A stretch of DNA of 64,000 nucleotides from the IMG/VR virus record IMGVR_UViG_3300048590_001376. One strand, given 5' to 3'. Position 1 is the stretch's first letter. Each line of letters opens with the position of its first letter. This DNA comes from a virus. Taxonomy: Duplodnaviria > Heunggongvirae > Uroviricota > Caudoviricetes. The notes below the pieces were generated by a model, which was given only the letters and a program-made list of their open reading frames with translations, ran no database searches and had not been told where the DNA came from. The position numbers and the translations under genes are program-made. Below, one piece after another: positions 7,740-44,208 of the stretch.

Positions 7740-8135
7740 TTAGCGTCGCCTCCGGCCAAAGCAGCCCATAATCTGGCCAGCGGCCATGAACAGCGAGCGG
7801 GTCAGGAATGGCCGCGTTTTCTCGACAAACGGCGCGTGCTTGGCGTCGGCGTACAGCGACAACGTGAGCTTGGAGCGGTTGACGGTGTATCGCGTGCGGC
7901 GTTGCAGCTCGCCGGTACGGCGGTGCGGAAACTCGCCGGGCATGCTGGCGGGCGGGAACGGCGTCGACAGATTCTTGCGAAGCTGGCGTAAGGCGACCTT
8001 CCCCGCGTCGTCAAGCCGATTGGCAATCTCACGGCGAATCAGGTATTCCGCCGGACGGAGCTTCCAGTAAAACTTGGCCGCGAAGGATAAAAGGGTAAGT
8101 CCAGTTGAATTGACCCCGATCTGCGATTTAGCCAT
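7740..8135 (-). CDS. HK97 gp10-like tail-component / neck protein.
   Basis: 131 aa from the internal ATG at 8133-8135. The Arg-rich N-terminal extension listed in the ORF track is rejected. Contains a PGEFPHRRTGELQRRTRY...YADAKHAPFVE motif typical of the gp10 family. Overlaps the upstream gene by 8 nt. Confidence 0.5.
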   Translation of the reverse strand: MAKSQIGVNSTGLTLLSFAAKFYWKLRPAEYLIRREIANRLDDAGKVALRQLRKNLSTPFPPASMPGEFPHRRTGELQRRTRYTVNRSKLTLSLYADAKHAPFVEKTRPFLTRSLFMAAGQIMGCFGRRRR

Positions 8136-8529
8136 TAGCCGCCTCCAGCCGTCCCTTGTCCTCTTCGAATTCCGCGATCCACAACATCGGGGTCGCCACG
8201 CCGGGCCGGCCTTCGTCGTAAGCCCCCAGCAATCGCAAAACGTGGACGGTGCCCGCGGCATCGGTCCAAGTGAAGTGTGAATCGTACTCCAGCGATGGAT
8301 TCGAAGAAAAGAATGCCATGTGCGTCGCGCGCTGGTCGCGAGCCTTGAAGCCCAGCGATTCGGACGCCGAGACAGTCTGCATGAGACAGGTTTTGTTGCT
8401 GGCGGTCCCTGGCGTGTACGCCACGCCCATCGCCGAGCCGACCGAGACGGCGATCGGCTTTTCAACGAGCGTGTGACCAGTGCAGAGTGATGCGATGCTC
8501 ATGTCGGTTAGCCGAACAATCGGCCCCAA
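8128..8529 (-). CDS. Head-tail joining / head closure protein.
   Basis: 133-aa ORF between the connector and the gp10-like gene. Alternative start at 8502. Confidence 0.4.
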   Translation of the reverse strand: MGPIVRLTDMSIASLCTGHTLVEKPIAVSVGSAMGVAYTPGTASNKTCLMQTVSASESLGFKARDQRATHMAFFSSNPSLEYDSHFTWTDAAGTVHVLRLLGAYDEGRPGVATPMLWIAEFEEDKGRLEAANG

Positions 8530-9284
8530 TCCCGGTAGTGTTCTAGAATGTGTTGTGATTCAGGGCAGATCAGTTGCGGAGCGCCTAGCGAGGAAAGGTT
8601 CGTGGCATACGAGCCCGACCATTTGCCGATCGACTCCGAAGTCAGCGGCCCGGCTCCCTGGTTCTGTGCTCCATGCTTGACCTTCCAGAACTCGGTGGCG
8701 ATCGACTTGATTACAGCCAGCCGAATGTCTTCGGCCCACTCCATGAGCTGATCCGCATCCCAACCGCCGTAATAGAGCACTTTCACGCTGCGCGGTTCGC
8801 GCGGCCAGTAGCCGCTGCGAAACAGCACGCCGGAGTGGCAGATTTTCGTGCCAACATCGCCTGACACGTCATACTCGCTGTCGGTGTCTGGCCAGTAGTC
8901 ACTGCCAAACGTCAGCAGGCTCGATGCCGGAAAGGCACTGCTGGGGTGGTGGCCGGCGTTGGCGCCAGTGTCCTCGTAGACTTCCATGCCCGTTGAAATG
9001 ACGGGCGCATGCGTGAGCTGCAAACGGTCGCTGCCGGCGACGCCCATACTGGCGACCGCGCGGCCGTTCTCGTACTCGAAATCAGCCAGGCGGTTGTCGA
9101 GTTTCAGGTCATCGCCAACTGGCAGATATTCGACATGCCGGCGACGGCCAAGCTCTTTTTGGATGTAGTTTTGCAGCGCACGCTCTACTGGGCGGTGGAT
9201 CAGTGAAATCAGCTCACGCTCTGCTTCCGTGACAGACGTGCTCTTGCCAATATAAATCAGAATTTCGTCGATCGTGACGAGCAT
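8508..9284 (-). CDS. Head-tail connector (gp6-like DNA-packaging QLRG-type N-terminus).
   Basis: 258 aa. The N-terminus (MLVTIDEILIYIGK...ERELISLIHRPVERALQNYI) resembles the phage gp6-like head-tail connector family. Confidence 0.45.
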   Translation of the reverse strand: MLVTIDEILIYIGKSTSVTEAERELISLIHRPVERALQNYIQKELGRRRHVEYLPVGDDLKLDNRLADFEYENGRAVASMGVAGSDRLQLTHAPVISTGMEVYEDTGANAGHHPSSAFPASSLLTFGSDYWPDTDSEYDVSGDVGTKICHSGVLFRSGYWPREPRSVKVLYYGGWDADQLMEWAEDIRLAVIKSIATEFWKVKHGAQNQGAGPLTSESIGKWSGSYATNLSSLGAPQLICPESQHILEHYRDWGRLFG

Positions 9285-9295
9285 GAATTCACCGC

Positions 9296-10192
9296 TTAAC
9301 TGATTGATCGAGTGACATCCGCTGAGACGATGAATTTGCCAGACGTTAGAGTACCTACACTGCCGCCAGACCGCAGAACCTGGATGTCGTAAATGTATTG
9401 CCCCGGATCAAGCTCTGCGGTAGCCGCCTCGTCGATTGCGATCGTGACATCGCCACTGGCTGCGCTGTCGACTGTAATTGAACCATTGCCGCTGGTTGTC
9501 GTACTCCCGTTCAGCCGCAGCAACCCGCCAGATTCGGTGATCTGAATCGTCGCCCTGGTATCGGCCTCTCGCTCTTGCTTTTTGACGGTAAACCAGAGTG
9601 TAGAACGGTCAGCAATCGACCCCAGCCCGGTGATCGAAATGCTGGCCGTGTCGCCGCGCGTGATCGTAATGTTATCGCCCTCGACCGTCGCGGCCGTCGC
9701 GGCGGCCGAGCTGGTGAGCGTGCGGGTGGCGTAGGCCCATACCGCGGCGGCGATGGCGGCGGCGGAAGACAGAGCGGCGATGGCCGTGTTGATCGTTTGT
9801 AACAGCAAGCCAAACGTGCCGGCGGTGGTGTGATCGGTGGTTGCAGCATCCCAAACGGCATCTTCAATTTGCGTGTCCGTCAACAGCGTCCTTTCCGCGC
9901 TCCCGCTCCAATCCAGCGTGCCCACCCCTACCTGCTCGTCGGTGGTCGCTGGCGATCCCCCGGCCCGCTGGAAAATAGGAACGTCGGCCAAGCCTTCTGG
10001 CAGGTCCGGTACGTCGGCGCTAAACAGTCCGAATCCGTCGTGCTCCGTGAGCGTAATGGCATAGGTGGCGATATTGGCAGCAACGACAGCCTCGTAGGCT
10101 GTGCCGTTCCAGATTTCGGCCGACGTGTTAGTGATGTGCGCGTAAAGATTGGTGCCGGTCAACTGCCGCGCCCAAAATCGTAGTTTGGCCAT
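9296..10192 (-). CDS. Structural protein, Thr/Ala/Ser-rich, possibly Ig-like or decoration protein.
   Basis: 298-aa ORF with beta-rich low-complexity composition, sitting between the fibre-like gene and the connector. Confidence 0.4.
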   Translation of the reverse strand: MAKLRFWARQLTGTNLYAHITNTSAEIWNGTAYEAVVAANIATYAITLTEHDGFGLFSADVPDLPEGLADVPIFQRAGGSPATTDEQVGVGTLDWSGSAERTLLTDTQIEDAVWDAATTDHTTAGTFGLLLQTINTAIAALSSAAAIAAAVWAYATRTLTSSAAATAATVEGDNITITRGDTASISITGLGSIADRSTLWFTVKKQEREADTRATIQITESGGLLRLNGSTTTSGNGSITVDSAASGDVTIAIDEAATAELDPGQYIYDIQVLRSGGSVGTLTSGKFIVSADVTRSIS

Positions 10193-10193
10193 G

Positions 10194-10412
10194 TCAGTCC
10201 TTCACGGTCCACTCGACCAGCGTTGATTTCAGTTCTTCGATTCTCGCCGCGATGGTTTGCAACTCCTGCTGCTGCTGCACTAGCGTCACTTCGCGGTGAT
10301 GCTGCTGCTTCGTCAATAACTCAATCTCCCGCTCGATGGCGGCGCGCTGCTCGTCCACCAGCTTCTTGCGGCGTTCGTCGGGAGTGGGTTGGGGGGTTGG
10401 TTCGTCGGTCAT
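10194..10412 (-). CDS. Small coiled-coil protein.
   Basis: 72 aa with strong heptad-like E/Q/L composition. Its start lies adjacent to the stop of the upstream gene (10412/10413). Confidence 0.4.
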   Translation of the reverse strand: MTDEPTPQPTPDERRKKLVDEQRAAIEREIELLTKQQHHREVTLVQQQQELQTIAARIEELKSTLVEWTVKD

Positions 10413-10730
10413 TTAGTAGTCGCCGCCTTCCTCCAACTTCGCTTCCAGTGCTGCAACCCGACGTTTCAGTTGGTCGATTTCGTCCTGTTGCTTTTGCAGC
10501 ATCTTCGCTGCCTCGAATTGCACTGGCTCCTGCTGTGTAATACTGGACTGAAAAGGCGCGGTCGTTGAGCGGATAACAATGCTCGGCACGTCGTTCGTGA
10601 ACGATGGGTCGGACAACGGCAAGTCACCAGCTGGCATCAGATTGGCGGTCTGTGGCGTGCTGCAAAGTTTCAAACCACCAGACGACGGCGAAAGATTCAG
10701 CATCACGGAATTGCCTTCGATTTTTAACAT
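10413..10730 (-). CDS. Hypothetical protein with a C-terminal coiled coil.
   Basis: 105-aa ORF in the late operon. Confidence 0.35.
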   Translation of the reverse strand: MLKIEGNSVMLNLSPSSGGLKLCSTPQTANLMPAGDLPLSDPSFTNDVPSIVIRSTTAPFQSSITQQEPVQFEAAKMLQKQQDEIDQLKRRVAALEAKLEEGGDY

Positions 10731-10767
10731 GTGTTCTCTCCTGGTTGTCTGCCCCAGGTAAAAGTTC

Positions 10768-11058
10768 CTACTTCGCCACCCGCAACAGCGCCTGCTTTAC
10801 GGTCAGCGGCTCGAAGCCAATAACCGGCCTGTCCAGCACGCTCAACAACTGCTTCGCCGCCGCCACGGCTGCCAGCGTTTCGTCTAGCTTGGCCTGTGCG
10901 TCCTCGCCGTCGCCAAAGTCGTCCAGTTGGACACCGCTCCAGAGTTCCAGCTTGCCCAGCGCGATTTGCGCGTTGGCTGCCAGTTCCACTTGCTGCTGCG
11001 CAAATTTCGCCAGTTGTGGCAAGATGGCTTGGCGGTCTGCTTGTCGATGTGCGCTCAT
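10768..11058 (-). CDS. Hypothetical small helical protein.
   Basis: 96-aa ORF in the late operon. Confidence 0.35.
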   Translation of the reverse strand: MSAHRQADRQAILPQLAKFAQQQVELAANAQIALGKLELWSGVQLDDFGDGEDAQAKLDETLAAVAAAKQLLSVLDRPVIGFEPLTVKQALLRVAK

Positions 11059-11162
11059 TTTCGTTCTCCTGTTGGTTGTTGGTTACGTTACTGTCGTGAT
11101 CGACTCTGTGCCGTGCGGTCGGTTTAGCGGGTCGTGTTCACGCACGGCCCGCGACTGTTTTG

Positions 11163-12341
11163 TTACCAAGATGCGATTGGCACCCGCTTCCATGTGTCCG
11201 TTGCCGTGCAGACGTAGATGAATCCGCTGTCCCAGCAAATGTCACCGGCGTTGCCAGTTGCCGATGCACTGGCTGGCGTCTTGGCGGTTCGCAGCCGCAG
11301 CACGTCGCTGTTGATGTCTAGTAGTGCCGTACCGCTTGTGTCGCCGATAATAACCCGTCCGTCGTGGTCGATGTTCAGGCGGTCTGCGCCGGCCGTGATG
11401 TCAAAGACGCGGAACTTGCCGCTGTCGCCAGCGCCGCCCGTGCCTGCTCCGAAAAACCATTCGCGGTCACTGCCCCGCGTCGTTTTCAGATAGACGACGG
11501 CGTCGCTTTCGCCAGATACTGGTTCAATAATGACTTGTGCAAAGTACGGAGAGCCGACCGCATCCATCTTGAGATGCAGTGGCGACAGTGGTGTCACGCT
11601 GCCGATGGCAACGCGCCCGTTCTGCACCGTCAATATGTCGATTAGCGTCTGCGCCGTTGACCCGCTCGCACCCGCAACCGTCGATTGCAAGATCACGCTG
11701 GCAGGCGTGGCGTTGCCGGTGGACTGGCCAGGGGCTAGGACGAGATTCGAGCCTGCCGCGTTGCTGCCGGAGCCCGGCTTGCCGAGTAGGGACCGCAGCA
11801 TCAGGTCGCGGACGCTGCCGGCCGTGCCGTTGTTGATTTCGACCACACCAGCGGCGTTGCGGGCAATGGCAGTGTCAGGGAAAGTGGCTCCGATGATGCC
11901 TCCCCAAGCAAACATCCCGCTCTCTGGTCCGCGAATCCAACCTGACCCATTCACTTCCCATATACCAGTCACCACCCCATCTCTTGTAGAAGCGGACCCA
12001 ATAACAAGATCAGCACCACCGCCCCCGATATTCGTTACAAGCCTAATGCCTGTGGCTGCAATGTTTAAATAACCGGACTCGCTAGTGACTAGCCCTCTAG
12101 TTCCATCGTGGCTGATCTGCACTTCATCCGTGCCGGCTACCCCGCCAATCTGCCGCGCGATGAACGTCCCCAGCGAAATCACATCGCCTGCTGTGGCGTG
12201 AGACGTGCCGCGTAGCGTCAGATCCTCGCCACTCGCCGTGCCGCCAATCAGCGTCTGCCCGCCAGCGCGGCCCGCCAACAGCGCTACCGTGGAGTAGTCG
12301 CTGAATTGCGACAGCCTGCTAGGAATGAAGGTAATTGCCAT
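11163..12341 (-). CDS. Fibre-like structural protein, candidate head or neck fibre.
   Basis: 392 aa, Gly/Thr/Ser-rich beta-repeat character. The C-terminus (GDICWDSGFIYVCTATDTWKRVPIASW) resembles the conserved C-termini of phage fibre proteins. Located between capsid and connector genes. Confidence 0.45.
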   Translation of the reverse strand: MAITFIPSRLSQFSDYSTVALLAGRAGGQTLIGGTASGEDLTLRGTSHATAGDVISLGTFIARQIGGVAGTDEVQISHDGTRGLVTSESGYLNIAATGIRLVTNIGGGGADLVIGSASTRDGVVTGIWEVNGSGWIRGPESGMFAWGGIIGATFPDTAIARNAAGVVEINNGTAGSVRDLMLRSLLGKPGSGSNAAGSNLVLAPGQSTGNATPASVILQSTVAGASGSTAQTLIDILTVQNGRVAIGSVTPLSPLHLKMDAVGSPYFAQVIIEPVSGESDAVVYLKTTRGSDREWFFGAGTGGAGDSGKFRVFDITAGADRLNIDHDGRVIIGDTSGTALLDINSDVLRLRTAKTPASASATGNAGDICWDSGFIYVCTATDTWKRVPIASW

Positions 12342-12350
12342 TGGTGCCCC

Positions 12351-12590
12351 CTACATCTGCATTCCAGAGGTCGCAGAAGTCGTTTCGAGGTACAGCGAAT
12401 TGCCTGCGCCGGATGCTGGGATAGCGGATGAAATTGGATCTGCGGCGACAATCTTCCCCGGCGTGCCTGTCGGATTGCTTGCCATGACCATGTTGCCGCC
12501 CGCTGCCGGCGACCCGTAGATCGTCTGCCCATCGGCGAACGGACGAATGCCATCGGCGGTCTGATACCAAACTGCGGGGGAACCAGGCAT
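12351..12590 (-). CDS. Hypothetical small Gly/Pro/Ala-rich protein.
   Basis: 79-aa ORF directly upstream of the fibre-like gene. Confidence 0.3.
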   Translation of the reverse strand: MPGSPAVWYQTADGIRPFADGQTIYGSPAAGGNMVMASNPTGTPGKIVAADPISSAIPASGAGNSLYLETTSATSGMQM

Positions 12591-12659
12591 GGGTTATGTC
12601 TCACGAAAGGCAGGGAAACTTGATATTCTGCAAAGTGGTGAGGGGGTGAGCATGGGCTG

Positions 12660-12974
12660 TTAGTTGGTGCCGGACGACCTGTTGCGAGCCAGTTGCTGAA
12701 CGTCGTGCTCAATGCGCTCGATGCGGCTTTCGAGGGCACTCTGCCGCTCGATCATGCCGGCTTGCTGAACTTCAATCCGAGCCAAAATATCCGTTTTCGT
12801 TTCCAGCTTGGTGAGCACAACCGCCATCTGAGACATCGTGTTCTCAGTAACGGCGATGCGCGTTTGCATATTGAGCCCCCACCAGGCGAACCCACCAGCG
12901 GGAGTCATTGCCAGCGAGGCCAGCGTAATCCACTCCGCAGCGCCAAGTTTTAATTTGCCGTTGCTGGAAGTCAC
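12660..12974 (-). CDS. Membrane-anchored coiled-coil protein with i-spanin-like architecture.
   Basis: 104 aa with an N-terminal hydrophobic segment (WITLASLAMTPAGGFAWWGL) followed by a coiled coil. Confidence 0.4.
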   Translation of the reverse strand: MTSSNGKLKLGAAEWITLASLAMTPAGGFAWWGLNMQTRIAVTENTMSQMAVVLTKLETKTDILARIEVQQAGMIERQSALESRIERIEHDVQQLARNRSSGTN

Positions 12975-13102
12975 TTCGCTGCCCTCCTGGCAAAGAGCCG
13001 ATCGAACTTGACCAGGCGTCCCCTCCCCGCCGCGAGGCGTGCCAAACCGGAATCCCTGGCTGGCTGGTCAAGCTGATCGGCAATGTCAAGCAAACTCTGG
13101 CG

Positions 13103-13555
13103 CTACTTGGTTGCCGGCGCAGGCGTTACGGCCGCAACTGGCTCTGCCAATGGCGGCTCCGGCGCGGGCACAAAGCCGTTGTCTTTGAGCTGGGTCAACA
13201 GCCAGGGCCGCAGCTCGTTATCCTTCGCCAGATAGGCCAGCATTTTCTTGAAGACGCCTTGCAGCTCGCGGACGACGTTTTCCTTATTGGCGAACGCTTT
13301 CACGGCCGAGCGAAGCTCGTGCAGCATGCCGCTGTAATCGCCAACAACATAGTTGCGGACGAATTCGGGCGTGCGAACGAACCCCCAGTTGGTGAGCACT
13401 TCGAACAGGTCCATGCCGGCCTTGCGGCGCTCCTCGATCTTGTCATCGACGCGGAACAGCATCTTGACGACCAGGAACGTACAGGCGACCGCCAGGGCAA
13501 CCATCACGCCGTCTTGCGGAGTGACCGCAATGTCAGCAAGCAGAAAAGGATTCAT
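13103..13555 (-). CDS. Membrane protein with an N-terminal TM helix.
   Basis: 150 aa with a hydrophobic N-terminus (VMVALAVACTFLVVKMLF) and a Pro-rich tail. Confidence 0.45.
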   Translation of the reverse strand: MNPFLLADIAVTPQDGVMVALAVACTFLVVKMLFRVDDKIEERRKAGMDLFEVLTNWGFVRTPEFVRNYVVGDYSGMLHELRSAVKAFANKENVVRELQGVFKKMLAYLAKDNELRPWLLTQLKDNGFVPAPEPPLAEPVAAVTPAPATK

Positions 13556-13610
13556 GTGATTTCTCTCCAGTGGTGTCAGGTGTATCTGCCGCGATCAACC
13601 GCCAGAGCGG

Positions 13611-14351
13611 TTACATCTTCACGCGGTTTTTGGTTTCCAGATAGGCGGCAATAGCTGCCGTGATCAGCGAGGCAATCGCCGCCAAGCCGAGCACGTTGGT
13701 TGGCTCTTCGGCCGGCGGCGTCGGTGCCAGCGGCTGTGGTCCGATGTCCGGGATGACTGGAATAGGATTCGGATTTGGATTCGGCTCCGGCGTCGGCGTT
13801 GGCGCCGGGTCAGGCCGCGGGCAGGGTCGGCCGAGCGCGTTGCGAATCATGGCCACCAGGGCTTGCGGCGAATCAGGGATATTGTGCGACGCGCACTTGA
13901 AAACCACCTTGCCATGGTTGCCGTACTGGTCCGGGCCTTGCAGCATGATGGCTGGAAACTGATTTTCAGGGACCGCAGAGGCAAACCGCGTGCGGTACAT
14001 GGCCAGTGCCGGAGTGTAGTGGTTCCAATGCGTCTGCGCTTTAAGACTGGCCAGCGACGTATCGCTTTGGAACCAGCTCAGCATCACACGCTCTTGCGGC
14101 GTCGGATTGGTGTTGGTGAAGACAGTCAGGTAGTACGACTGGCCGTCTTCGGGCAGTTCGATGACGCGATCGGAAATCAGGCTATTGGCGGGCAGATCGA
14201 GCGCAGGCAATTGCAATTGCTGCCGCGGCTGCTGCTGTTGAATCTGGCTGGCTGCTTGGGCGTCGTTGTTCTGCTGGTAGTCGCGGACCAAGAACAGCGA
14301 TACGGTCACGCATAGCGTGGCGATCGCCGCGTGAGTGAACGATACTTTCAT
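13611..14351 (-). CDS. Secreted protein with a signal peptide, a Pro-rich linker and a C-terminal hydrophobic anchor.
   Basis: Start taken at the internal ATG (MKVSFTHAAIATLCVTVSLFLV). Contains PNPNPNPIP repeats. The C-terminus (LGLAAIASLITAAIAAYL) is hydrophobic. Confidence 0.45.
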   Translation of the reverse strand: MKVSFTHAAIATLCVTVSLFLVRDYQQNNDAQAASQIQQQQPRQQLQLPALDLPANSLISDRVIELPEDGQSYYLTVFTNTNPTPQERVMLSWFQSDTSLASLKAQTHWNHYTPALAMYRTRFASAVPENQFPAIMLQGPDQYGNHGKVVFKCASHNIPDSPQALVAMIRNALGRPCPRPDPAPTPTPEPNPNPNPIPVIPDIGPQPLAPTPPAEEPTNVLGLAAIASLITAAIAAYLETKNRVKM

Positions 14352-14395
14352 GTGATTCCCTCCACAGTTGAAGATGGACATTGCCGGCCTGGCGT

Positions 14396-15001
14396 CTACA
14401 GCCATGGCCTGGGCGGTGCGGGAGAGTAAACGGGTGTCAGCGCGAAGCCCCCGAATCCTTTCCATTTACTGATGAACGTCTCGCGGTCGACGTACTCGTG
14501 CTCCTTAATGTGATTGTTGTCCAGCAAAATCGCTTGGCGTCCGTCTTCGGTCCAACCGAAGAAGCAGATCGAATGACTTGGCTTGTAGAAAATCGTCGCC
14601 CCGCGTTTAGTCCTGCTGCACCAATCGAGAAAACCAACGTCGCCCTCAGTCGTGTAGGCGAATCGCAACCCCGCTTTCTCGCACTTATTGATCAGTCCGC
14701 CAGATGACTCGCCGCCGTGATACGTCTCGCGCCACCAGGCGGCCAAGTCTTCCATGCCCTGCCAGCGCATGATCATTTCAGTGCTGGCGTGGACACACGA
14801 GCCGCCGGAATAGTTCTTCATCCGCAGCTCGTAGGGCAGATCGACCGGCGGCACGCCAGTCCACGGATAGTCGCCGTAGCAGGTGCCAGGCGAATTGACG
14901 TAGGCGGCGTCGCTATAGGCCAGCGGACCAGAGCCGGTGCGAATCGTGCAGCCGGCAGCGAAAACGATCGCAATGATCGCCAGCGTGGCGAGTGGCTTCA
15001 T
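14396..15001 (-). CDS. Lipoprotein with a peptidase C39-like (papain-fold Cys/His) domain.
   Basis: Start at the internal ATG (MKPLATLAIIAIVFAAGC) gives a lipobox. The conserved GSCVHAS (Cys) and HSICFFGW (His) pattern resembles Peptidase_C39_2. Confidence 0.45.
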   Translation of the reverse strand: MKPLATLAIIAIVFAAGCTIRTGSGPLAYSDAAYVNSPGTCYGDYPWTGVPPVDLPYELRMKNYSGGSCVHASTEMIMRWQGMEDLAAWWRETYHGGESSGGLINKCEKAGLRFAYTTEGDVGFLDWCSRTKRGATIFYKPSHSICFFGWTEDGRQAILLDNNHIKEHEYVDRETFISKWKGFGGFALTPVYSPAPPRPWL

Positions 15002-15204
15002 GGACAATCCTCCTTGATTGGACCCGGCACCGGCGTCGTATCCGGTGAAAAGGGCGGTTGCGGTCGCTGGTAATTGATGGCTGGCGCTGGGCACTGGCCG
15101 TCCGGGCAACAGCCGTCAGGGCCGCATTGCTGGGCTCCAGGAGTGCGAACCGTGCAGCCACCAACGGCAAGCAAGACCATCATCGCAGCGATCATTTGTT
15201 TCAT
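14998..15204 (-). CDS. Small Pro/Cys-rich lipoprotein, similar in form to an o-spanin (Rz1-like).
   Basis: 68 aa from the internal ATG (MKQMIAAMMVLLAVGGC lipobox), then a Pro/Cys-rich tail (CGPDGCCPDGQCPAP...). Confidence 0.4.
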   Translation of the reverse strand: MKQMIAAMMVLLAVGGCTVRTPGAQQCGPDGCCPDGQCPAPAINYQRPQPPFSPDTTPVPGPIKEDCP

Positions 15205-15392
15205 TTGTCGCGATCCTTTTTCCACGGCACTTGAAAGTGGATGTAGTGATCGTGCCGCTGGGCGTCGTAGTGGTGGTGGTGGTCGTGGCCGTGCTGGTGC
15301 GTGGCCTTGCAGCCGCGACCCTGACAAACAAACAGACAGGCGACAGCCGCCAGGACCAGTACGATCATCAGGTTGCTTGTGTCTCGTTCCAT
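15201..15392 (-). CDS. Small His-rich putative lipoprotein.
   Basis: 63 aa with a hydrophobic N-terminus (MIVLVLAAVAC) and an HQHGHDHHHHYDAQRHDHY stretch. Confidence 0.3.
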   Translation of the reverse strand: MERDTSNLMIVLVLAAVACLFVCQGRGCKATHQHGHDHHHHYDAQRHDHYIHFQVPWKKDRDK

Positions 15393-15431
15393 CGCGCTCT
15401 ATCGCCGAACTGGCGACTCACATCCTCGGTT

Positions 15432-16085
15432 TCAAGGGCTTGGTTCTGGGCGGTTCGCTGGCCTCGCGAGCACTACAACCCAACATTTTCGGCCACGAGT
15501 ATCCTCTGCCATCGCACAGCCGAATTGAGTGAACTCAGGGTCGAGGATAGTCGCCTTATGGCCAGGTGATTGCAGCCAGCCATTGATAACGCTGATTGGT
15601 GTCTCGAAATCGCCGGCTACGACTTCACCAACCTTGCTTGCCGGATAGCCAGCGGCGCGCACGCGATCGGCAGGCCAACTTCCGCCTTGGCCTTGGTGTC
15701 CGAGCCTGCCAGTGCTGGCCATCCATTTGGCAAACTGGTCGGCGGCGGCCGTGAGCTTCTGGTCGCTAAACAGATAAAGGCAGTTGTTTCGGCTGCGCAA
15801 TCGAATGCCGAGCCGGATTTCCAGCTCTGTCACTGGATCGTCGACATGGATGTCGAGCGGGTCGTTCCAGTTGGGCAGTTGGTTTGGGAGTGGGGCTGGC
15901 GGCGGCGCCACGCTGGGCGGCGTGAGATTGACGCCTGGCCTGCGAGTCATCGCCAGGGGCTCTCCCGTCTTGATGGTACAGCCAGCGACAACGAGCACGA
16001 AAAGCAGGCGACCGACAAAGCGGCACGTCTCGTAGGCAATCGCGCTCCAGTGAAGGCCGTTGATGATGCTGGTAAGTCGATCCAT
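15432..16085 (-). CDS. CAP/SCP (PR-1-like) domain lipoprotein.
   Basis: LLFVLVVAGC lipobox. CAP-like motifs GHQGQGGSWP...SPGHKATILDPEFTQFGCA...WVVVLA. ATG at 16083-16085; the ORF-track start at 16121 is a TTG codon. Confidence 0.45.
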   Translation of the reverse strand: MDRLTSIINGLHWSAIAYETCRFVGRLLFVLVVAGCTIKTGEPLAMTRRPGVNLTPPSVAPPPAPLPNQLPNWNDPLDIHVDDPVTELEIRLGIRLRSRNNCLYLFSDQKLTAAADQFAKWMASTGRLGHQGQGGSWPADRVRAAGYPASKVGEVVAGDFETPISVINGWLQSPGHKATILDPEFTQFGCAMAEDTRGRKCWVVVLARPANRPEPSP

Positions 16086-16128
16086 GTCGAAAACTCGCTG
16101 AAAAGTCCTGTTGCCCGCCAAAAAGCCG

Positions 16129-16554
16129 CTAGTTTTGTAGTTCGACTACGCTTTTTTCGCCTAGCTTTTGGCCAGTGGTTTTTCGCTCGGTGCAGCGACA
16201 TGGCTTCTGACAGTCGCATGACACGACGCAAAGGCAGGCCCCGCCGCCGCCGTCCTGGTGAATTCGCGGCTCGGCCTCCAGGGTGATTGGTTCGGTCGAG
16301 TGAACGGTCAGCTCAGTATTGGACTTGCCCAGATAGGTGTACCGCAGTTCTCCGCGGCTGTTGTATTCCCAGCGATACATGTTGCCAGTGCGGAACGCCG
16401 CACCCGGCCAGGCCGGAGAGAGCGGCGCGATCGTGAACCCGGTGACGGGCTGCCACTTGACTTCGTTGGAAGCCTGGATCGAAGCGGCAATCATCAATCC
16501 AATCCAGATGCCGGCGAAAACAAAGTACATCGCTCCAGCGATATAACGAGCCAT
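16129..16554 (-). CDS. Single-pass membrane protein with a Cys-rich C-terminal domain.
   Basis: 141 aa from the ATG at 16552-16554 (MARYIAGAMYFVFAGIWIGLMIAA). A GGAG sequence lies 10 nt upstream, and the gene sits next to the C92-like gene (TGAaATG junction). The longer 275-aa ORF-track version is rejected. Confidence 0.4.
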   Translation of the reverse strand: MARYIAGAMYFVFAGIWIGLMIAASIQASNEVKWQPVTGFTIAPLSPAWPGAAFRTGNMYRWEYNSRGELRYTYLGKSNTELTVHSTEPITLEAEPRIHQDGGGGACLCVVSCDCQKPCRCTERKTTGQKLGEKSVVELQN

Positions 16555-16555
16555 T

Positions 16556-17134
16556 TCAGTCAACTCCATCGAGGGTGAACGCATATCTCCAGAGCATGCT
16601 GTGGGACAGGTCGCCCGGCTCTGTAATGCGGTCGGAAATGTTGGGAACGGGGTCGATTTTGCCGCCCAGTCGGGCGGACGTGCTGACGGCGAATGAGCAG
16701 AATTTCGGCAGCCACGAGGGGTCGCCGATGTCATCCATTTCCGGCTTGATGAACAGCCGGACAAACGGCAGATGCAGCAGCGCGGCTGAGTAGATTGCGG
16801 TCCATCCGTAGGGCTCGCCAACGGAGTGAGTGAACATGTGCCGCACTGCGCCCGCGCGGTCGTATTGGTCTTCGAATTCCTGTCGGACGCGATACACGTC
16901 CCAGCGGCCAGGGTGATCTTTGACTTGGCTCCGCAAGCTGACGCAGCGGCCGCCAACGCCTTCGCACATTTCCATCACCGCGGGGATGCCGTTCCAGACG
17001 CAATACATGGCCGCGTGGCTGTAGATCGAGCGGCTGGCTGTGCGAATCAGCTTGGAGAACGAGAAGACTCCGTAGCCACGAAACAGCAGCAAGTCGCCGT
17101 CGGCCATGTGATCGACGGCTTTCGCGAGCGACAT
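16556..17134 (-). CDS. NlpC/P60-superfamily peptidase of the permuted papain-fold C92 (YiiX/YaeF-like) type; candidate cell-wall hydrolase.
   Basis: GDLLLFRG...SIYSHAAMY motif resembles the C92 family. Start taken at the internal ATG at 17132-17134. Confidence 0.45.
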   Translation of the reverse strand: MSLAKAVDHMADGDLLLFRGYGVFSFSKLIRTASRSIYSHAAMYCVWNGIPAVMEMCEGVGGRCVSLRSQVKDHPGRWDVYRVRQEFEDQYDRAGAVRHMFTHSVGEPYGWTAIYSAALLHLPFVRLFIKPEMDDIGDPSWLPKFCSFAVSTSARLGGKIDPVPNISDRITEPGDLSHSMLWRYAFTLDGVD

Positions 17135-17162
17135 GCTGTTGGTTTCAGGTGACACGGCAGTC

Positions 17163-17417
17163 CTATTTGCAGATGAGTGATTGCCTCCCGGTCCCACTGC
17201 ACGCCGGGCAGGTCGCCTCGACCTTTTTGCTTGGATCGACTTGCGACTTGTAAATCAGCTTCCCCTTGCCGCCACAGGACTCGCAAGGTCGCCTGGGTTG
17301 CTGATTCTCCATGACGATCACTCCATCGACTGTTAGCTGCCCGCACGTCTTCCAGGCGCGGTCGACGTGCGGGCTGCGAGTGGGGGCTTCACACACTCGC
17401 GACTGCTCTTGAATCAC
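17163..17417 (-). CDS. DnaJ-type CxxCxGxG zinc-finger protein.
   Basis: 84 aa with CESCGGKGK and CPACSGTGR repeats. Confidence 0.45.
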   Translation of the reverse strand: MIQEQSRVCEAPTRSPHVDRAWKTCGQLTVDGVIVMENQQPRRPCESCGGKGKLIYKSQVDPSKKVEATCPACSGTGRQSLICK

Positions 17418-17995
17418 TTTCCGCCGCCAGAACCGGCCGGCTCTTTCCTGGTGGTCGTGGCAGGAACTTCAACGCGGTCGGTCCAGCGCTGATCTTCAGG
17501 CTTGTGCAGCTTTCCCAGCGCGCCCTTGCGTCGCTTGCCAGGCAGCTTGCGGGCCTCCTCCGATGACATCAGTTCGCCGCTAACGACGCGGGCATAGCCA
17601 GCCTCGACCGTGCGCGCCATCTCGTACAGCCAGGTCTTGATTTCGTCCTGGCTCATGTTTTCCTTGACCGACTGCGGCCAGGGCTTGGTGGGCGAAAAGA
17701 ACGACGGATACTGAGACATGATCGGCTTGATCTTCTCCCAGATCGCGTGCCCCTCCGGCGTGCCGCCGTCCTTGGGCTCGGCCAGCGGGTCAAAGACCAC
17801 GCCTGTTTTCTTGTCGACATCCAGGCTGATATGAATGCCTGGAATGAAATGGACTGTCGAAATCGCCTTGAGTGATTCCGCCTTGTCCTTTTGCGCCACG
17901 TTGGCGGTGTCCCAGCGGCCACGCAACCGCCGCATGAGCGGCTTGAACGTGTGGCTTTCATTGCGAGGACCGGCAATCTCGATCACAACTTTCAT
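17414..17995 (-). CDS. Hypothetical protein.
   Basis: 193-aa ORF with a 4-nt overlap with the downstream gene. Confidence 0.45.
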   Translation of the reverse strand: MKVVIEIAGPRNESHTFKPLMRRLRGRWDTANVAQKDKAESLKAISTVHFIPGIHISLDVDKKTGVVFDPLAEPKDGGTPEGHAIWEKIKPIMSQYPSFFSPTKPWPQSVKENMSQDEIKTWLYEMARTVEAGYARVVSGELMSSEEARKLPGKRRKGALGKLHKPEDQRWTDRVEVPATTTRKEPAGSGGGK

Positions 17996-18037
17996 GCGTG
18001 AAACCCCCAGATGGAAAACAGAAGCAAAATAGGTGGA

Positions 18038-18376
18038 TCAGAAGCTCCTGGCCCGAAGCGTCGCCAAGCACTTCGCCAGGATGTCGACGTTTTTTTGCCG
18101 CAGCTTATTCAGTCGACGCTCGCGGTCGCCTTGTTTGGTCGTGTCGCCTTCGGGCACCGGAACCGGCAATTCGATGGCCCAGACCCAATCGATCAAGCCA
18201 CGCTCATTGACGTTGACGTTGCCCGGATCGTTGTCGCGCGCTCGCCACGGCTCGGCGGCTGGGACGATACCAAGTTCGATGGCGCGAGCATTCGCAGCCT
18301 CGGAGAACTTCTTGATGCTGATGGCCGACGCCCCCAGCAGCCAGATTCGGATCAGATTCTCGTTTGCTTGATTCAT
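18038..18376 (-). CDS. Hypothetical protein.
   Basis: 112 aa from the internal ATG at 18374-18376, immediately after the capsid terminator. The longer ORF-track version would span the terminator hairpin. Confidence 0.4.
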   Translation of the reverse strand: MNQANENLIRIWLLGASAISIKKFSEAANARAIELGIVPAAEPWRARDNDPGNVNVNERGLIDWVWAIELPVPVPEGDTTKQGDRERRLNKLRQKNVDILAKCLATLRARSF

Positions 18377-18398
18377 GGTCGAGTGAGTTGAAAAACGG

Positions 18399-18442
18399 CT
18401 GGCGCCGGCCGATGGAAAAACCGGCGCCAGCCTGTGCAGCGA
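18399..18442 (-). terminator. Rho-independent terminator downstream of the major capsid gene.
   Basis: Perfect 12-bp GC-rich inverted repeat (ggctggcgccgg / ccggcgccagcc, 18407-18442), followed on the minus strand by a T-run (plus-strand aaaaac at 18401-18406). Confidence 0.6.
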
Positions 18443-18476
18443 CTTCCAGACCCCGCAGCCGGAAGTGGCAGGTGAA

Positions 18477-20117
18477 TTAGGACTGCATATCGGTGATGCG
18501 GTAGCCCGCGCCACCCAGTTCCAGTTGACCGCCGAAGCGCGCCCGCAAGATGATCATGCGGGTGTTGCGACGAGCCAGATCGGCATCCTCGGTGACGACG
18601 CGAATGCCGAAACCGCTGCGCCGATACATGCGATAACGGTTCATGCAGAAGAAACCGGCGTCCGCATTGTCGATCGATTCGTTGATCTTGTGCGGATGGC
18701 CCAGCAGCTCGTAGCTCTCGTGGTCCATGCCGAACACGCGGCGAGCGTCCGAAGCGCCAACCGGAATGCCACGAGCGCGACTGTAGGTCGTCTCGTTGGT
18801 GATATATACCGAACGAGCACGGCCTGCCTCGGTGCGGAACTCCTTCTTGACGCCAAACAGCAGCGCCTCGTAATCGTCGATTTCCGGCGGGCCAACAGCG
18901 CCGTTTTCGCTGGTCGTGGTGGTGACGGCGCTCGACACAAACAAGCCTTCCGGCCGATCGGTGCCGTTGCCACTCGTGACTACGTTGTCCAGCTCCTGTT
19001 GGAAGCGAACACCATAGCGATCGACCAAGGCATCGCCAATTGCGACCGGGCTGTCGGCCTCGAAGTCCAGGCCGGACTCGATCGCGCCGGTGATCGGATG
19101 GATGTTCGTATCGAACGCGGCAATAAAGGCGTCGGTGTCGAACAGGCCGATCGACGTGCCTTCCGAAACGCCCCAGGAGAGCGTCGGGTTGCCGATCGAC
19201 ACACCTTCGATGCGACGCCGGGTGACGTTTCGCACCGTGACCAGCGGGTAGATTTCGCCAGTCAGCAGCGGCGTGAAGATAACCAGATCGTCGAACTCGA
19301 TCGGCACAGCTTCCAGACCGCCGGAGAGCGTGTCATCGAGCAGCGTCTTGCGATGCAGCTCGTTGTGAATGCGATTGCCCTTCGACCAGAACTGCGCTTC
19401 CTCGCCTTTGTCGTCCGCGCCGACCGGACCCACGAACTTGCATTCGTGGACCGCGTACTGGCAGAGCTGCCAGTCCTCTTCGGTCATCCGCATGGCGGGC
19501 GGAATGGCCTGACGGTGAGCGTTGCAGCTCTTGTTGACCATCAGCTTGAACCAGGCGCCGGCGATGGCCTTCTGGCGATCGCTGGGCACGTCCAGGCGGC
19601 GCGGCGCGATATCGCAGTTCTCGTCGATGCCCACGCCGGTCATCACCGGGCGACCGGAGAATTCCTTACGGAACATCTGGTCGCGGCCGCGGTACATGTC
19701 CCAGGTCGCCCCGGTGCGAGAATCGTCGAAGCGCTCGACGATCGACTTGACGCGCACGCGAGCCTCGTCGTTGTACTCGCCCAGCGCGCTGCCGGCCATG
19801 GCGTAAGCCTTGCGGCCCAGCCCGGTCGAAGCATCGGCCCCGTCGCCGCCGGCCGGCTGCGCCTTGGTGATCGTGGTCAGCATCTTCTCCTCGAACTTGC
19901 TGAATCGATCCTCCATCCGCTTGTCCAGGTCCGAGAAAAATTCCTCGCGGGCCTGCGCGTTCGGGGTGACGGTCAATTCCTTGACCTTTTTCGGCTCCAG
20001 CTTCTCATCGAGAATCGCCGTCTGGACCGCCTCGCGCACGGCAGCGTCGTCCGCGTCGGCAGCCAGACCGAAGTTGGCGACCATGTGCTGTTTCAGTTGC
20101 GGTGTGACCTTTAACAC
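18477..20117 (-). CDS. Major capsid protein with an HK97-like fold and an N-terminal coiled-coil delta/scaffold-like domain.
   Basis: About 546 aa. Its size and position after the protease are typical, and the C-terminal region looks like an HK97-family capsid. A strong AAGGAGG SD lies 7 nt before the GTG at 20115-20117. The TTG at 20123 is too close to the SD to be the start. Confidence 0.55.
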   Translation of the reverse strand: MLKVTPQLKQHMVANFGLAADADDAAVREAVQTAILDEKLEPKKVKELTVTPNAQAREEFFSDLDKRMEDRFSKFEEKMLTTITKAQPAGGDGADASTGLGRKAYAMAGSALGEYNDEARVRVKSIVERFDDSRTGATWDMYRGRDQMFRKEFSGRPVMTGVGIDENCDIAPRRLDVPSDRQKAIAGAWFKLMVNKSCNAHRQAIPPAMRMTEEDWQLCQYAVHECKFVGPVGADDKGEEAQFWSKGNRIHNELHRKTLLDDTLSGGLEAVPIEFDDLVIFTPLLTGEIYPLVTVRNVTRRRIEGVSIGNPTLSWGVSEGTSIGLFDTDAFIAAFDTNIHPITGAIESGLDFEADSPVAIGDALVDRYGVRFQQELDNVVTSGNGTDRPEGLFVSSAVTTTTSENGAVGPPEIDDYEALLFGVKKEFRTEAGRARSVYITNETTYSRARGIPVGASDARRVFGMDHESYELLGHPHKINESIDNADAGFFCMNRYRMYRRSGFGIRVVTEDADLARRNTRMIILRARFGGQLELGGAGYRITDMQS

Positions 20118-20182
20118 GTTCAAACCTCCTTGAAAGAACCGCGACTTTCACAGGGTCGCGAGCTGTTGGCAAAAAACGCTCT

Positions 20183-21796
20183 TTAATTCAGCAGCGGCTC
20201 CAGCGGTTCAAGCTGCTGTTCAACGGTTTTAATCGCATCGAGCAGAGCGCTGCCGGCCAGGGCGGCAGCCTCTTCGTCGGCCATGAACAGGGCCGCGCAA
20301 GTTTTGCGAGTCAGTTGCTCCAGGCTGTCCGAAGCGATCGGCGCGAGCGGTGCGCCCAAGCTGGCCAGGGCCTTCGTGACAACCTGGGGCTTGATTTCGA
20401 CCGCTTCGGGTGTTCCCGTCCATGCCGGCAGACCGGCATCGTTCATCGCCCACGACGAGCGATAGCAGGCGTGCTTGCCGCCGTGGTAGATGCAGAAGAT
20501 CGCCGAGTCAGCAAACGTGGCGACCATGCTGGCCCCATCGTCGTAGCTCGGCAGATCGGTTGCGCCGCTAGCGCATAAGTGAGACACCGCCGTCCGGCGC
20601 AGTTTGTGGGCGACCCACTCGAAGGAACCTTCGAGATAGTCATCCATGATGCCGTACATGCCTTTGGTCGACAGCTCGCCGGACGACTTGGCGACCAGCG
20701 CGTCGAGCGACTTGCGGTAAACAGGCACTTCGGACGGATCGAAGTTGGCCAGATCGATCAACGACTGGCCCACTGCCCGTAGCTTCCCCTTGGTTTCCAG
20801 CGAGATTTCGCTGCTCTTGTTTTTATTGCAATCGCAGGTGCCGTCTGGCTTCATGCCGGGACAGCCGCCGGGCCTCTTTTTCTTGCGGCGCTTTTTGGCG
20901 GTTGCGGTCGTTTCCGGCGGCGTGGCCTCCGTGCCACCGGACGTGTCGTCATCGGCCAGCATCTTGCCAGCCAGGTCCGCGCCGGAAACTTGTGTCGGTC
21001 GCTGGTCGAAGATGTTCTTCGCCCAGGCTTTGACCATTTCGTGTTGCAGCATGCCGCGGCTGTGAGCCGTGGCCAGGCCGTCGAATTCCTTCGTGGCCCA
21101 AACGCTGCCTTCACCCGCGTAAACATCGAGCACCCGGCCATCAGAGTTGGCCGGGATCGAGCACAGCGTTCCCTCGTACACGTTGGCCTTTTTGACGTGC
21201 CAGCCGATGGGAATCTGCTGGCCGTTCAAGCCTTTCTTGAAACCGCGCGGCTCGAAGTCGCTGGGGATAAATCCATGGCTCATCCGCAGCGCCTTCATCC
21301 GCGTGAGCACGGCGGCATCGCGGCCCAACTCGGTGTCGGCAATGGCAAACTGACACTTGACCCACTTGTCGTTCTGGTCGAGCAGTTTGACGTGCCGGCC
21401 GATCGGCTGGAGCTTGATGTGGTGCCATAACAGCGGCATATCCACGTCAATCGCCAGACCCTTCGACTCCAGGACATCGCCGTCCCGGTCCAGATTGGAC
21501 GAGGACAGGATGCCGTCGAACATGAGGATCGCGCCATCCGGCAAGTCGCTGCCGTCGCGCAGCGACTTGATCCGCATGTCCTCATCGCCCCAAGTGAGGC
21601 GCGAGGCAGCTTCGGCAATTTCCTTTTGCCACAGATCGCCCGACGCCAGATTAAAAATCTTGGTCGGGCACAGCGCGCTCTCGCCCTGGCCGAAGCATGG
21701 CAACAGGCCGCCGATGTCGCGAGCGGCCGTGCCGATGCCCCAGAGCGCGTCGCGCTCGCCGAGCGATTTCAGGATGGCTTCAATGTCGAGCTTCAT
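20183..21796 (-). CDS. Prohead protease (HK97/S78-like) fused to a C-terminal scaffold-like region.
   Basis: The LLWHH...LQPIG...DTELGRDAAVLTRMKALRMSHGF motif resembles the HK97 prohead protease. The gene encodes 537 aa and carries about 330 extra C-terminal residues. Confidence 0.6.
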   Translation of the reverse strand: MKLDIEAILKSLGERDALWGIGTAARDIGGLLPCFGQGESALCPTKIFNLASGDLWQKEIAEAASRLTWGDEDMRIKSLRDGSDLPDGAILMFDGILSSSNLDRDGDVLESKGLAIDVDMPLLWHHIKLQPIGRHVKLLDQNDKWVKCQFAIADTELGRDAAVLTRMKALRMSHGFIPSDFEPRGFKKGLNGQQIPIGWHVKKANVYEGTLCSIPANSDGRVLDVYAGEGSVWATKEFDGLATAHSRGMLQHEMVKAWAKNIFDQRPTQVSGADLAGKMLADDDTSGGTEATPPETTATAKKRRKKKRPGGCPGMKPDGTCDCNKNKSSEISLETKGKLRAVGQSLIDLANFDPSEVPVYRKSLDALVAKSSGELSTKGMYGIMDDYLEGSFEWVAHKLRRTAVSHLCASGATDLPSYDDGASMVATFADSAIFCIYHGGKHACYRSSWAMNDAGLPAWTGTPEAVEIKPQVVTKALASLGAPLAPIASDSLEQLTRKTCAALFMADEEAAALAGSALLDAIKTVEQQLEPLEPLLN

Positions 21797-21854
21797 TTGT
21801 GCGACTCACCTACTGGCCAGCGTTCAGTCCAATCGCTCCCGGCGGCCAACTCGG

Positions 21855-32248: not shown

Positions 32249-32249
32249 G

Positions 32250-44106: not shown

Positions 44107-44208
44107 CGGTGAAGCCCCGAACGCGCACAAAAAAAGAGCAGCCAGGATCGCATGAGTTAGATGCGATCCTGGCGAAACAGTCGAGTTGAAGAGACGGACG
44201 CGAGAGGC

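Follow-up and report, generated by a model that had tools for sequence, protein, structure and literature searches.

A conserved core cassette within a nine-gene, probably envelope-directed block of a large, probable Planctomycetota phage, a candidate non-canonical lysis system

The closest described counterparts of the locus reported here are the lambda-type lysis cassette (S, R, Rz/Rz1), the signal-arrest-release (SAR) and signal-peptide endolysins, the papain-fold and C39-like peptidases, the YaeF/YiiX-like enzymes, and the phage lipoproteins of superinfection exclusion. In the SAR endolysin Lyz of phage P1 the catalytic cysteine is caged by a disulfide, and Llp of T5 and Ltp of TP-J34 are small phage-encoded envelope lipoproteins of superinfection exclusion; each is the product of a single gene that is active early or in lysogens, and neither has a catalytic domain. 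For the Planctomycetota, a phylum with an atypical envelope, our literature searches found no worked-out phage lysis. In this study, we analyzed a stretch of 64,000 nucleotides (the window) of the Caudoviricetes record IMGVR_UViG_3300048590_001376 from IMG/VR, where nine co-oriented open reading frames (ORFs), g1 to g9, occupy positions 12660-17134 on the minus strand between the capsid and the neck genes. We lean slightly towards the view that this block is a late-transcribed, envelope-directed module and the non-canonical lysis cassette of this phage, arranged around a conserved core. The nine genes are as follows (aa, amino acids; TM, transmembrane; KD, Kyte-Doolittle hydropathy).

g1: 16556-17134, minus strand; 192 aa; predicted YaeF/YiiX-like permuted NlpC/P60 (peptidase C92) Cys-His enzyme, first gene of the cassette
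g2: 16129-16554, minus strand; 141 aa; single-pass membrane protein with a Cys-rich C-terminus (ACLCVVSCDCQKPCRC)
g3: 15432-16085, minus strand; 217 aa; CAP/SCP-domain lipoprotein, lipobox LVVAGC
g4: 15201-15392, minus strand; 63 aa; membrane peptide with a His-rich tail (10 His)
g5: 14998-15204, minus strand; 68 aa; Pro/Cys-rich lipoprotein (LAVGGC; CGPDGCCPDGQCP) with 13 Pro and 6 Cys
g6: 14396-15001, minus strand; 201 aa; lipoprotein (FAAGC) with a predicted C39-like papain-fold cysteine peptidase domain, invariant core gene
g7: 13611-14351, minus strand; 246 aa; bitopic protein with an N-terminal TM helix, a periplasmic helix, a thioredoxin-fold domain (LPEDG motif), a PNPNPNP stalk and a C-terminal TM helix
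g8: 13103-13555, minus strand; 150 aa; single-pass membrane protein, predicted to place a helical domain of ~115 aa in the cytoplasm, conserved fourth gene of the cassette
g9: 12660-12974, minus strand; 104 aa; weakly hydrophobic N-terminal segment (maximum KD 1.11) and a coiled coil

The ORFs of the block are packed as in an operon, with ATGA overlaps at g4/g5 and g5/g6, a gap of 1 nt between g1 and g2, and remaining gaps of 39-128 nt, and their GC content at third codon positions (GC3), 0.61-0.77, matches that of the other window genes. A 19-residue segment with a mean KD of ≥1.6 is present in seven of the nine, against 3 of the 78 other window ORFs (Fisher p = 7e-7). Canonical lipoboxes, called from the pattern [LVI][ASTVI][GAS]C, a positive n-region and hydropathy only, were found in g3, g5 and g6. 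The packing, the gene-like GC3, the enrichment of hydrophobic segments and the lipoboxes together show that the block is real and non-random. A previous reading of this DNA from its sequence alone (the sequence-only reading) had taken the whole cluster to be exported, which is borne out for the seven proteins with hydrophobic segments and is weak for g9; g1 has no hydrophobic segment and, having neither a signal peptide nor a TM segment, is taken to be cytoplasmic.

A scan of IMG/VR with an alignment profile of g6 retrieved 157 related contigs. The profile was needed, since single-sequence scans of IMG/VR with g6 and with the major capsid protein (MCP) returned nothing; nor was anything found among GenBank phages (50,697 records) by megablast of 12300-21800 or by tblastn of the MCP, g6 and g1. 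Synteny was counted in 87 of the related loci, which dereplication at 80% identity reduced to 39 clusters. The g7 gene adjoins g6 in 81 of the 87 loci, the remaining loci being truncated, and the two are strictly adjacent and often overlap. Directly after g7 stands g8 in 27 of the 39 clusters, and the order g1-g6-g7-g8 is likewise kept in 27/39. Homologues of g1 lie immediately upstream of g6 in other loci, and four unrelated phage-like contigs carry g6, g7 and g8 side by side with a YiiX-like gene upstream. The g1 of the window directly matches the gene at the g1 position in L010 (6e-47), L020, L008/L009 and L014. When the window was compared with four relatives (tblastn, E ≤ 1e-5), the cassette proteins were common to them and the only other match was a ThyX-like one (L014); because almost nothing outside the cassette is shared, the cassette moves between phage genomes. 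None of g6, g7 and g8 matches a Pfam family, and the g6 family comprises at least 705 representative clusters (E ≤ 1e-10) among 1.84 billion proteins. Metagenomic homologues of g6 and g7 are numerous, some being annotated as Pirellulales, and 10 of the 13 matches in a genome collection come from metagenome-assembled genomes of Planctomycetota (Schlesneria, Pirellulales, Thermoguttaceae, Pirellulaceae and others). Overall, g1-g6-g7-g8 is a conserved, horizontally mobile core cassette of Planctomycetota phages.

The position of the cassette varies among its carriers. In L053 and L023 it stands directly upstream of a gpA-type large terminase (PF05876; phrog_675, 8e-80), and in L046, L053, L059, L061 and L067 it is followed by a small conserved Cys-motif ORF, a putative small terminase, which directly precedes the large terminase where that gene was identified. 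In L003 the cassette abuts an integrase. L071 has it flanked by a giant LPD38-domain protein on one side and an integrase on the other, and L073 and L080 repeat the gene sizes and gene order of L071. A group of 38 loci (the L065 group) carries g6 and a longer g7 after a capsid gene (PF25209) and before neck-sized genes, a position like that in the window although the capsid type differs; because this unrelated group keeps g6-g7 there, the post-capsid position is not unique. In 16 loci the next gene after g8 encodes a CxxC thioredoxin (PF00085, up to 8e-12), and most of these thioredoxins have a recognisable lipobox. Measured from g6, the CxxC thioredoxin is located ~1.0-1.4 kb downstream in L046, L059, L067, L080, L085 and others, and it has no counterpart in the window.

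Two Planctomycetota assemblies (L105 and L106) harbor a prophage-like element that opens with a g1 homologue, continues with a secreted, membrane-anchored Trypsin_2 protease and a TM plus coiled-coil protein, and carries terminase and portal genes further downstream, preceded by a putative small-terminase ORF. Since the Trypsin_2 protease, the linker of which contains CVDGRCP, takes the place of g6 next to g1 homologues, the class of protease is interchangeable while the architecture is kept. In both assemblies (10001-19000) the same element, prophage-like or resembling a gene transfer agent, occupies the same chromosomal site and is flanked by Radical SAM, MgsA, MerR/TPR and Exo_endo_phos genes.

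The g6 protein is classed, from its residues and profile matches, as a lipoprotein with a C39-like papain-fold cysteine peptidase domain and a predicted intact Cys/His/Asn site, which makes it a candidate exported endolysin or wall protease. In the alignment of 32 g6 sequences, N63, C69, H143 and N163 are invariant and D161 is nearly so, giving the order catalytic Cys, then His, then Asp/Asn, with the oxyanion Gln/Asn upstream. A profile-to-sequence match to PDB 3erv was obtained at E = 4.8e-4, and the best matches among predicted viral structures were the endolysin of Gordonia phage OneUp (6e-5), cyanophage endolysins and mycobacteriophage LysA. A lipobox-like site is present in 28 of the 32 homologues. 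The Pfam C39 models (PF03412, PF13529) do not match g6, no Pfam family does so at E ≤ 1 except for a spurious CBM match, and its homologues have no precomputed Pfam domain. We rejected the identification of g6 as a bacteriocin-leader peptidase of the C39 type found in peptidase-containing ATP-binding cassette (ABC) transporters (PCAT), as it is a stand-alone lipoprotein of 201 aa with no evident GG-leader substrate gene, and the window and the inspected gene tables of related loci show no ABC transporter. The motif C-[PV]-D-G-x-C-P occurs in g5, in the linkers of 14 of the 32 g6 homologues (alignment A1), in the long g7 of the L065 group (L065 10581-11594) and in the Trypsin_2 protease that replaces g6 (L106 10602-12065).

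The g7 protein, invariably adjacent to g6, is its obligate partner. Every member of its family has an N-terminal and a C-terminal TM helix and a Pro-rich stalk, and the domain between the anchors is assigned to the thioredoxin fold. The domain has no Pfam thioredoxin match, and no CxxC is present in the window protein or in 18 of 19 family members, by which a redox-active thioredoxin is ruled out.

The first gene, g1, for which a public gene call places the start near 17155 (199 aa), is to judge by its conserved residues a YiiX-type permuted NlpC/P60 Cys-His enzyme with an intact catalytic dyad. As a single sequence, g1 matches PDB 3kw0 at E = 5e-4 and the NCBIfam models YiiX (8.5e-4) and YaeF (4.9e-3), both under their cutoff, and has no Pfam match at E ≤ 1. 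With the family profile (A3, 26 sequences), the match to 3kw0 spans the full length and reaches 1.2e-14, and that to YiiX 2if6 reaches 4e-7. The residues H40 (SH motif) and C146 (FCS motif) are invariant in the 26 sequences and align with the SH and CSE motifs of 3kw0, and the catalytic order is permuted, with His before Cys. Among 72 homologues of g1, PF05708 was recorded on two, and some are named Planctomycetota. Lipid binding or activity, rather than muralytic activity, has been reported for the permuted NlpC/P60 clade (PMC12994826, PMC7387801), and by analogy g1 may act on lipid.

The fourth core gene, g8, has one strong TM segment (KD 2.35). In its family (41 sequences) the 15 residues before the TM segment contain 0.7 K/R on average and the 15 after it 3.8, with a median of 117 residues following, and an N-out/C-in orientation is predicted because of this bias. 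No Pfam, PHROG (holins included) or PADLOC family was matched by g8. It has one strong TM segment and a cassette position beside enzymes, and its length of 150 aa and large cytoplasmic domain would be atypical of a holin; g8 is put forward as a candidate holin or trigger. The matches of g9 are weak and of the coiled-coil type only (PF15237, 6e-4; SpiroCoCo, 6e-4; six PHROGs of unknown function). TM plus coiled-coil ORFs are common after g8 in relatives and stand at the position of g9 in L003, L009, L010, L015, L071 and L073, and g9 is probably the local counterpart of these membrane proteins 3′ of g8. An XhlA identity for them is unconfirmed (L010, E = 1e-3, below cutoff); one XhlA match (5e-10) was obtained among 149 flanking ORFs and is not assignable to a particular ORF.

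Between g1 and g6, which are normally adjacent, the window carries g2 to g5. The g2 protein has a TM segment at residues 5-23 (KD 2.06) and six Cys, and finds nothing in Pfam, PHROG, NCBIfam or PADLOC. The g3 protein matches PF00188 at E = 7.4e-17 with 62.7 bits (cutoff 21.1) over 110 of 117 profile positions. It also matches the NCBIfam models DalA (NF052539; 3e-21) and YkwD (7e-13). DalA is a peptidoglycan-binding lipoprotein of the outer membrane (PMC10470522), and g3 is ruled out as its equivalog, as the 76 bits obtained lie under the equivalog cutoff of 200. The g4 peptide has a TM segment at residues 5-23 (KD 2.45) and only faint matches, to His-rich loops of Ni/Co transporters. The sequence-only reading had called it a His-rich lipoprotein; its ten His are confirmed, and a lipoprotein nature is doubtful because the lipobox-like strings AAVAC and LFVC are non-canonical. 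The g5 protein, also a called gene on an independent 2.4-kb contig, matches the N-terminal linker of the g6 homologues in L002 and L012, and g5 and g6 are identical at 16 of 17 nt around the lipobox. No homologue of g2, g3, g4 or g9 was found in any of the 87 related loci. Since g2 to g5 have no homologues there, apart from the likeness of g5 to the g6 linker, and split g1 from g6, they are regarded as inserts specific to this phage. The string GCT[IV][KR]T[GP], in which the lipobox Cys is directly followed by a common stretch, is shared by g3, g5 and g6 (15960-16025, 15135-15204 and 14930-15001), which suggests a duplicated signal-peptide module or a shared sorting signal.

Most single-gene assignments of the sequence-only reading were upheld: a C92/YiiX-like g1 (3kw0, 1.2e-14), a single-pass g2, a CAP lipoprotein g3 (PF00188), a C39-like Cys/His peptidase lipoprotein g6 with an invariant site, a TM protein g8, and a g7 with a PNPNP linker and a C-terminal anchor, to which an N-terminal anchor is now added. 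For g9, said to combine a TM segment with a coiled coil, the coiled coil stands and the hydrophobic segment is weak. The g5 protein is o-spanin-like in composition (68 aa, 13 Pro, 6 Cys and a lipobox) and had been paired with g9 as spanins; this pairing was not supported, as g5 stops at 14998 and g9 starts at 12974, ~2 kb away with g6 to g8 in between, neither matches a spanin in Pfam or PHROG, and the pair is not conserved. Likewise, three distinct peptidase-like folds had been counted, which overstates the case, since g1 shares the papain-like type with g6 and a peptidase nature of the CAP fold is not established.

Nearly all window genes lie on the minus strand, and the block is embedded among the following late genes and signals.

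portal: 25101-26792
S78-type prohead protease: 20183-21796 (PF04586)
HK97-type MCP: 18477-20123 (PF05065)
intrinsic terminator directly 3′ of the MCP gene: 18397-18432, minus strand; 14-bp stem with 11 G-C pairs, then a T-run
head-tail adaptor: 8508-9284
Neck1-like protein: 7740-8465
tape measure protein: 3560-5980

The gene calls, the Pfam context and the terminator (18432-18397) thus agree with the previously proposed location of the cluster after the capsid terminator and before the neck genes. In all, the interval from capsid to adaptor holds ~9 kb of other genes. The MCP gene is separated from g1 by three small ORFs of 112, 193 and 49 aa, the last a zinc ribbon, and g9 from the adaptor by a 79-aa ORF, three small coiled-coil ORFs and proteins of 392 aa (fibre-like) and 298 aa. 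The block itself contains no promoter or terminator of comparable strength, and g1 to g9, like the other genes 3′ of the MCP terminator, would depend on transcriptional read-through.

A Pfam scan of all sizeable window ORFs detected no domain of the lysozyme, transglycosylase, amidase, M15/M23 or CHAP kind. For ten related loci, whose 149 flanking ORFs matched 40 Pfam families, the 25 families listed include no canonical endolysin domain either. No protein of the block matches a holin, endolysin or spanin family in Pfam, PHROG or NCBIfam. PADLOC, which covers few exclusion systems, gave no family at E ≤ 0.01 for the nine proteins.

The lysis interpretation, which we slightly favour, follows from the combination of a cytoplasmic hydrolase-type enzyme, a lipid-anchored peptidase with endolysin-like viral neighbours, its obligate partner and a holin-sized membrane protein, and from the embedding in a late operon, the positions typical of lysis cassettes, the mobility and the lack of a canonical endolysin in the DNA examined. 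In the proposed mechanism, g6 would be exported through the lipoprotein pathway before lysis and kept inactive by g7 and/or by periplasmic oxidation of its catalytic thiol. A holin-like timer, g8, perhaps helped by g9 and by g2 and g4, which are small membrane proteins, would then permeabilise or depolarise the membrane, whereupon g6 would cleave peptide links of the wall, either peptidoglycan stems and cross-links or the Cys/Pro-rich wall proteins typical of Planctomycetia. The g1 enzyme would accumulate in the cytoplasm and then reach its substrate, which may be an amide bond of peptidoglycan or, like that of other permuted NlpC/P60 enzymes, membrane lipid. Thiol chemistry may be involved, as relatives add a CxxC thioredoxin lipoprotein where this phage has the Cys-rich g2 and g5, and the CAP lipoprotein g3 may bind peptidoglycan. 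The parts thus assigned, with g8 as trigger, g7 restraining g6, g6 cutting wall peptides or proteins and g1 attacking lipid or amide bonds after the breach, are what we infer from this scheme. Host biology makes a protease- and thiol-based lysis plausible, as Planctopirus limnophila can do without some peptidoglycan-synthesis genes but not without a Cys-rich YTV wall protein (PMC10632474). More tentatively, and in our view rather improbably, Planctomycetota phages might not rely on a classical muralytic endolysin and might instead direct a pre-exported, lipid-anchored Cys (or, interchangeably, Ser) protease, controlled by a thioredoxin-fold membrane partner and accessory thiol-redox lipoproteins, together with a cytoplasmic lipid-active permuted NlpC/P60 enzyme, against a protein-reinforced wall in an envelope that owes its strength to Cys/Pro-rich proteins no less than to peptidoglycan, with CxDGxCP as a targeting or regulatory handle.

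Several points weigh against lysis. The window and a further ~8 kb are part of a contig of ~174 kb, so a canonical lysis cassette could lie in the remaining ~102 kb, and the scan of the flanks refers to 25 listed of 40 families. In the absence of any match to a known holin, endolysin or spanin family, the function is read from fold, architecture and gene context. Permuted NlpC/P60 enzymes are reported to be lipid-active rather than muralytic, so that any part of g1 in lysis is tentative. The largest related group (L065, 38 loci) has g6-g7 alone, g1 and g8 not being detectable in the 20 kb examined. The export of an active wall hydrolase as a lipoprotein before lysis would be unusual, and the step that controls it is postulated. 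Finally, phage lipoproteins are classic superinfection-exclusion factors.

This last point leads to an alternative that we consider unlikely, though well worth weighing, namely that the block is a superinfection-exclusion or lysogenic-conversion module that remodels the envelope against the adsorption or injection of related phages; a tethered g6 protease could, for instance, destroy a receptor or proteins that an incoming phage ejects. A composition of lipoproteins and membrane proteins is what such a module would show, many carriers are temperate (integrase nearby) or integrated prophages (L093, for example, lies within a Pirellulales contig of 416 kb), the inserts g2 to g5 look like moron-type genes restricted to this phage, and the lipopolysaccharide (LPS)-type sugar genes of the genome could alter the cell surface. 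However, the core sits inside same-strand late structural operons without a promoter or terminator of its own, and in several phages directly before the terminase; it is paired with a cytoplasmic hydrolase-type enzyme, g1, its conservation across very diverse phages is unusual for exclusion genes, the viral structures nearest to g6 are endolysins, and PADLOC, within its limited coverage of exclusion systems, has no match. Lysis is accordingly better supported than exclusion, and of the previous proposal of a relocated lysis cassette the lysis part is retained, while the cassette is not a canonical one but an undescribed, conserved g1-g6-g7-g8 cassette, accompanied by a coiled-coil membrane protein, with the inserts g2 to g5.

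The strict adjacency and frequent overlap of g6 and g7, and their occurrence alone in the largest group, would also suit a toxin-immunity (effector-inhibitor) pair serving phage or prophage addiction or inter-bacterial competition, with g7 as a membrane-tethered immunity protein. We hold this to be highly improbable, since no secretion-system genes are nearby, the lipobox would tether g6 to the envelope of its own producer, and in most clusters the pair is linked to g1, g8 and lysis-type positions; an enzyme-inhibitor relation between g6 and g7 is moreover part of the lysis model, so that the two differ mainly in purpose. The site after a capsid terminator is a common insertion place, and a chance pile-up of unrelated small accessory genes (morons) without common function at this permissive site was also considered. 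That g2, g3, g4 and g9 lack homologues in related loci and that the unrelated L065 group has genes inserted there too would fit it, but the order g1-g6-g7-g8 in 27/39 clusters largely refutes it for the core, membrane proteins are enriched (p = 7e-7), and short motifs are common to members of the block, which leaves this the slimmest of chances. A virion component or an entry enzyme was rejected, as the lipoboxes and TM anchors argue against it.

Several other features of the window and its contig were recorded. The window belongs to a contig of ~174.3 kb, and the phage is thus a large one. Just upstream of g1, the 49-aa ORF (17163-17312) carries a DnaJ-type CxxCxGxG zinc ribbon (PF00684, 8e-4). 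The 392-aa protein (11163-12341) has a tail-fibre-like C-terminus (phrog_17312, 1e-10) and the 298-aa protein (9296-10192) matches phrog_1084; both are possible candidates for head fibres or decoration proteins. An SPFH/Band 7 membrane protein (31688-32284; PF01145, 2e-16) adjoins the putative large terminase (29826-31691). Nucleotide-pool genes are present at 35341-35769, 37008-38414 and 38755-39408, encoding MazG, ThyX and PF18909 (dATP/dGTP diphosphohydrolase N-terminal domain, MazZ-like). Because PurZ was not seen in the window, there is no evidence of a modified-base genome. The early or replication region encodes a SET-domain protein (41235-41789), an ankyrin-repeat protein (52513-53577), a PAPS-reductase-like protein (43387-44130) and a DUF6094 methyltransferase (49636-50697), and three homing-endonuclease-like genes carry an AP2 domain (36472-37011), HNH_3 (48309-49046), and NUMOD4 with HNH_3 (55323-56057). 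A tRNA scan found nothing. On the same contig, in the ~8 kb that adjoin the left edge of the window and just past the tail genes, an LPS/heptose-type sugar gene set (L088 12068-20954) comprises a heptosyltransferase/Methyltransf_21 fusion, a CTP_transf_like gene, a PfkB kinase, methyltransferases and glycosyltransferases.

If the cassette is a lysis system, its three Pfam-less families (g6, g7 and g8) and the YiiX-type enzyme would be the first parts list for opening planctomycete cells, the range of endolysins would extend to lipoprotein-anchored papain-fold proteases regulated by thioredoxin-fold partners, and the poorly understood bacterial YiiX-like enzymes would gain a concrete, testable role. 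In addition, the cassette is a practical metagenome marker for planctomycete phages (157 IMG/VR contigs, at least 705 protein clusters) and might supply enzymes for breaking open cells that resist lysis.

Compared with the lambda-type lysis cassette, the block is likewise compact and late and unites small membrane proteins and lipoproteins with an enzyme that would build up in the cytoplasm; in relatives it stands directly upstream of the terminase genes, and it moves between phages as a cassette. It differs in having no muralytic glycosidase or amidase domain and no holin or spanin family match, in a lipoprotein that carries a predicted catalytic peptidase domain, in a doubly anchored membrane partner with a thioredoxin fold in place of a coiled coil, and in the non-adjacency of g5 and g9. 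The proposed model shares with the SAR and signal-peptide endolysins an enzyme with a catalytic Cys that would be exported before lysis, tethered, inactive and then triggered, and the accessory thioredoxins suggest thiol control; unlike them, g6 has a lipobox anchor and not a releasable SAR helix, is papain/C39-like and not a lysozyme, and its regulation is inferred. The Cys-His-Asp/Asn arrangement of g6 is that of the papain-fold endolysin peptidases (the N-terminal domain of actinophage LysA, the pseudomurein endoisopeptidase PeiR), with OneUp and LysA nearest, whereas the sequence identity is 9-15% and g6 lacks a cell-wall-binding domain and has a lipoprotein signal and an obligate membrane partner. 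The order of its catalytic residues is also that of the C39-like peptidases (3erv, Peptidase_C39_2; C39 domains of PCAT/ComA), but g6 has no Pfam C39 match, is not fused to an ABC transporter, is a predicted periplasmic lipoprotein and has no evident GG-leader substrate gene.

The g1 enzyme resembles the YaeF/YiiX-like enzymes (C92; 3kw0, 2if6; relatives LRAT and Tox-Act1) in its full-length profile match and in the invariant His before Cys; it differs from them in being phage-borne and linked to an envelope cassette and in falling, as a single sequence, below the Pfam and NCBIfam thresholds, and those relatives act on lipids. The g3 protein shares the CAP domain with DalA and YkwD and the lipobox with DalA, and unlike both it is phage-encoded and missing from related cassettes. 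In contrast to Llp and Ltp, the core is a four-gene late block with two Cys-His enzymes whose active sites appear intact. Lysis cassettes as such are known; what is new here is the composition, which joins a papain-fold protease, predicted to be a lipoprotein, to a bitopic partner with a thioredoxin fold, a YiiX-type enzyme and, in some carriers, thioredoxin lipoproteins.

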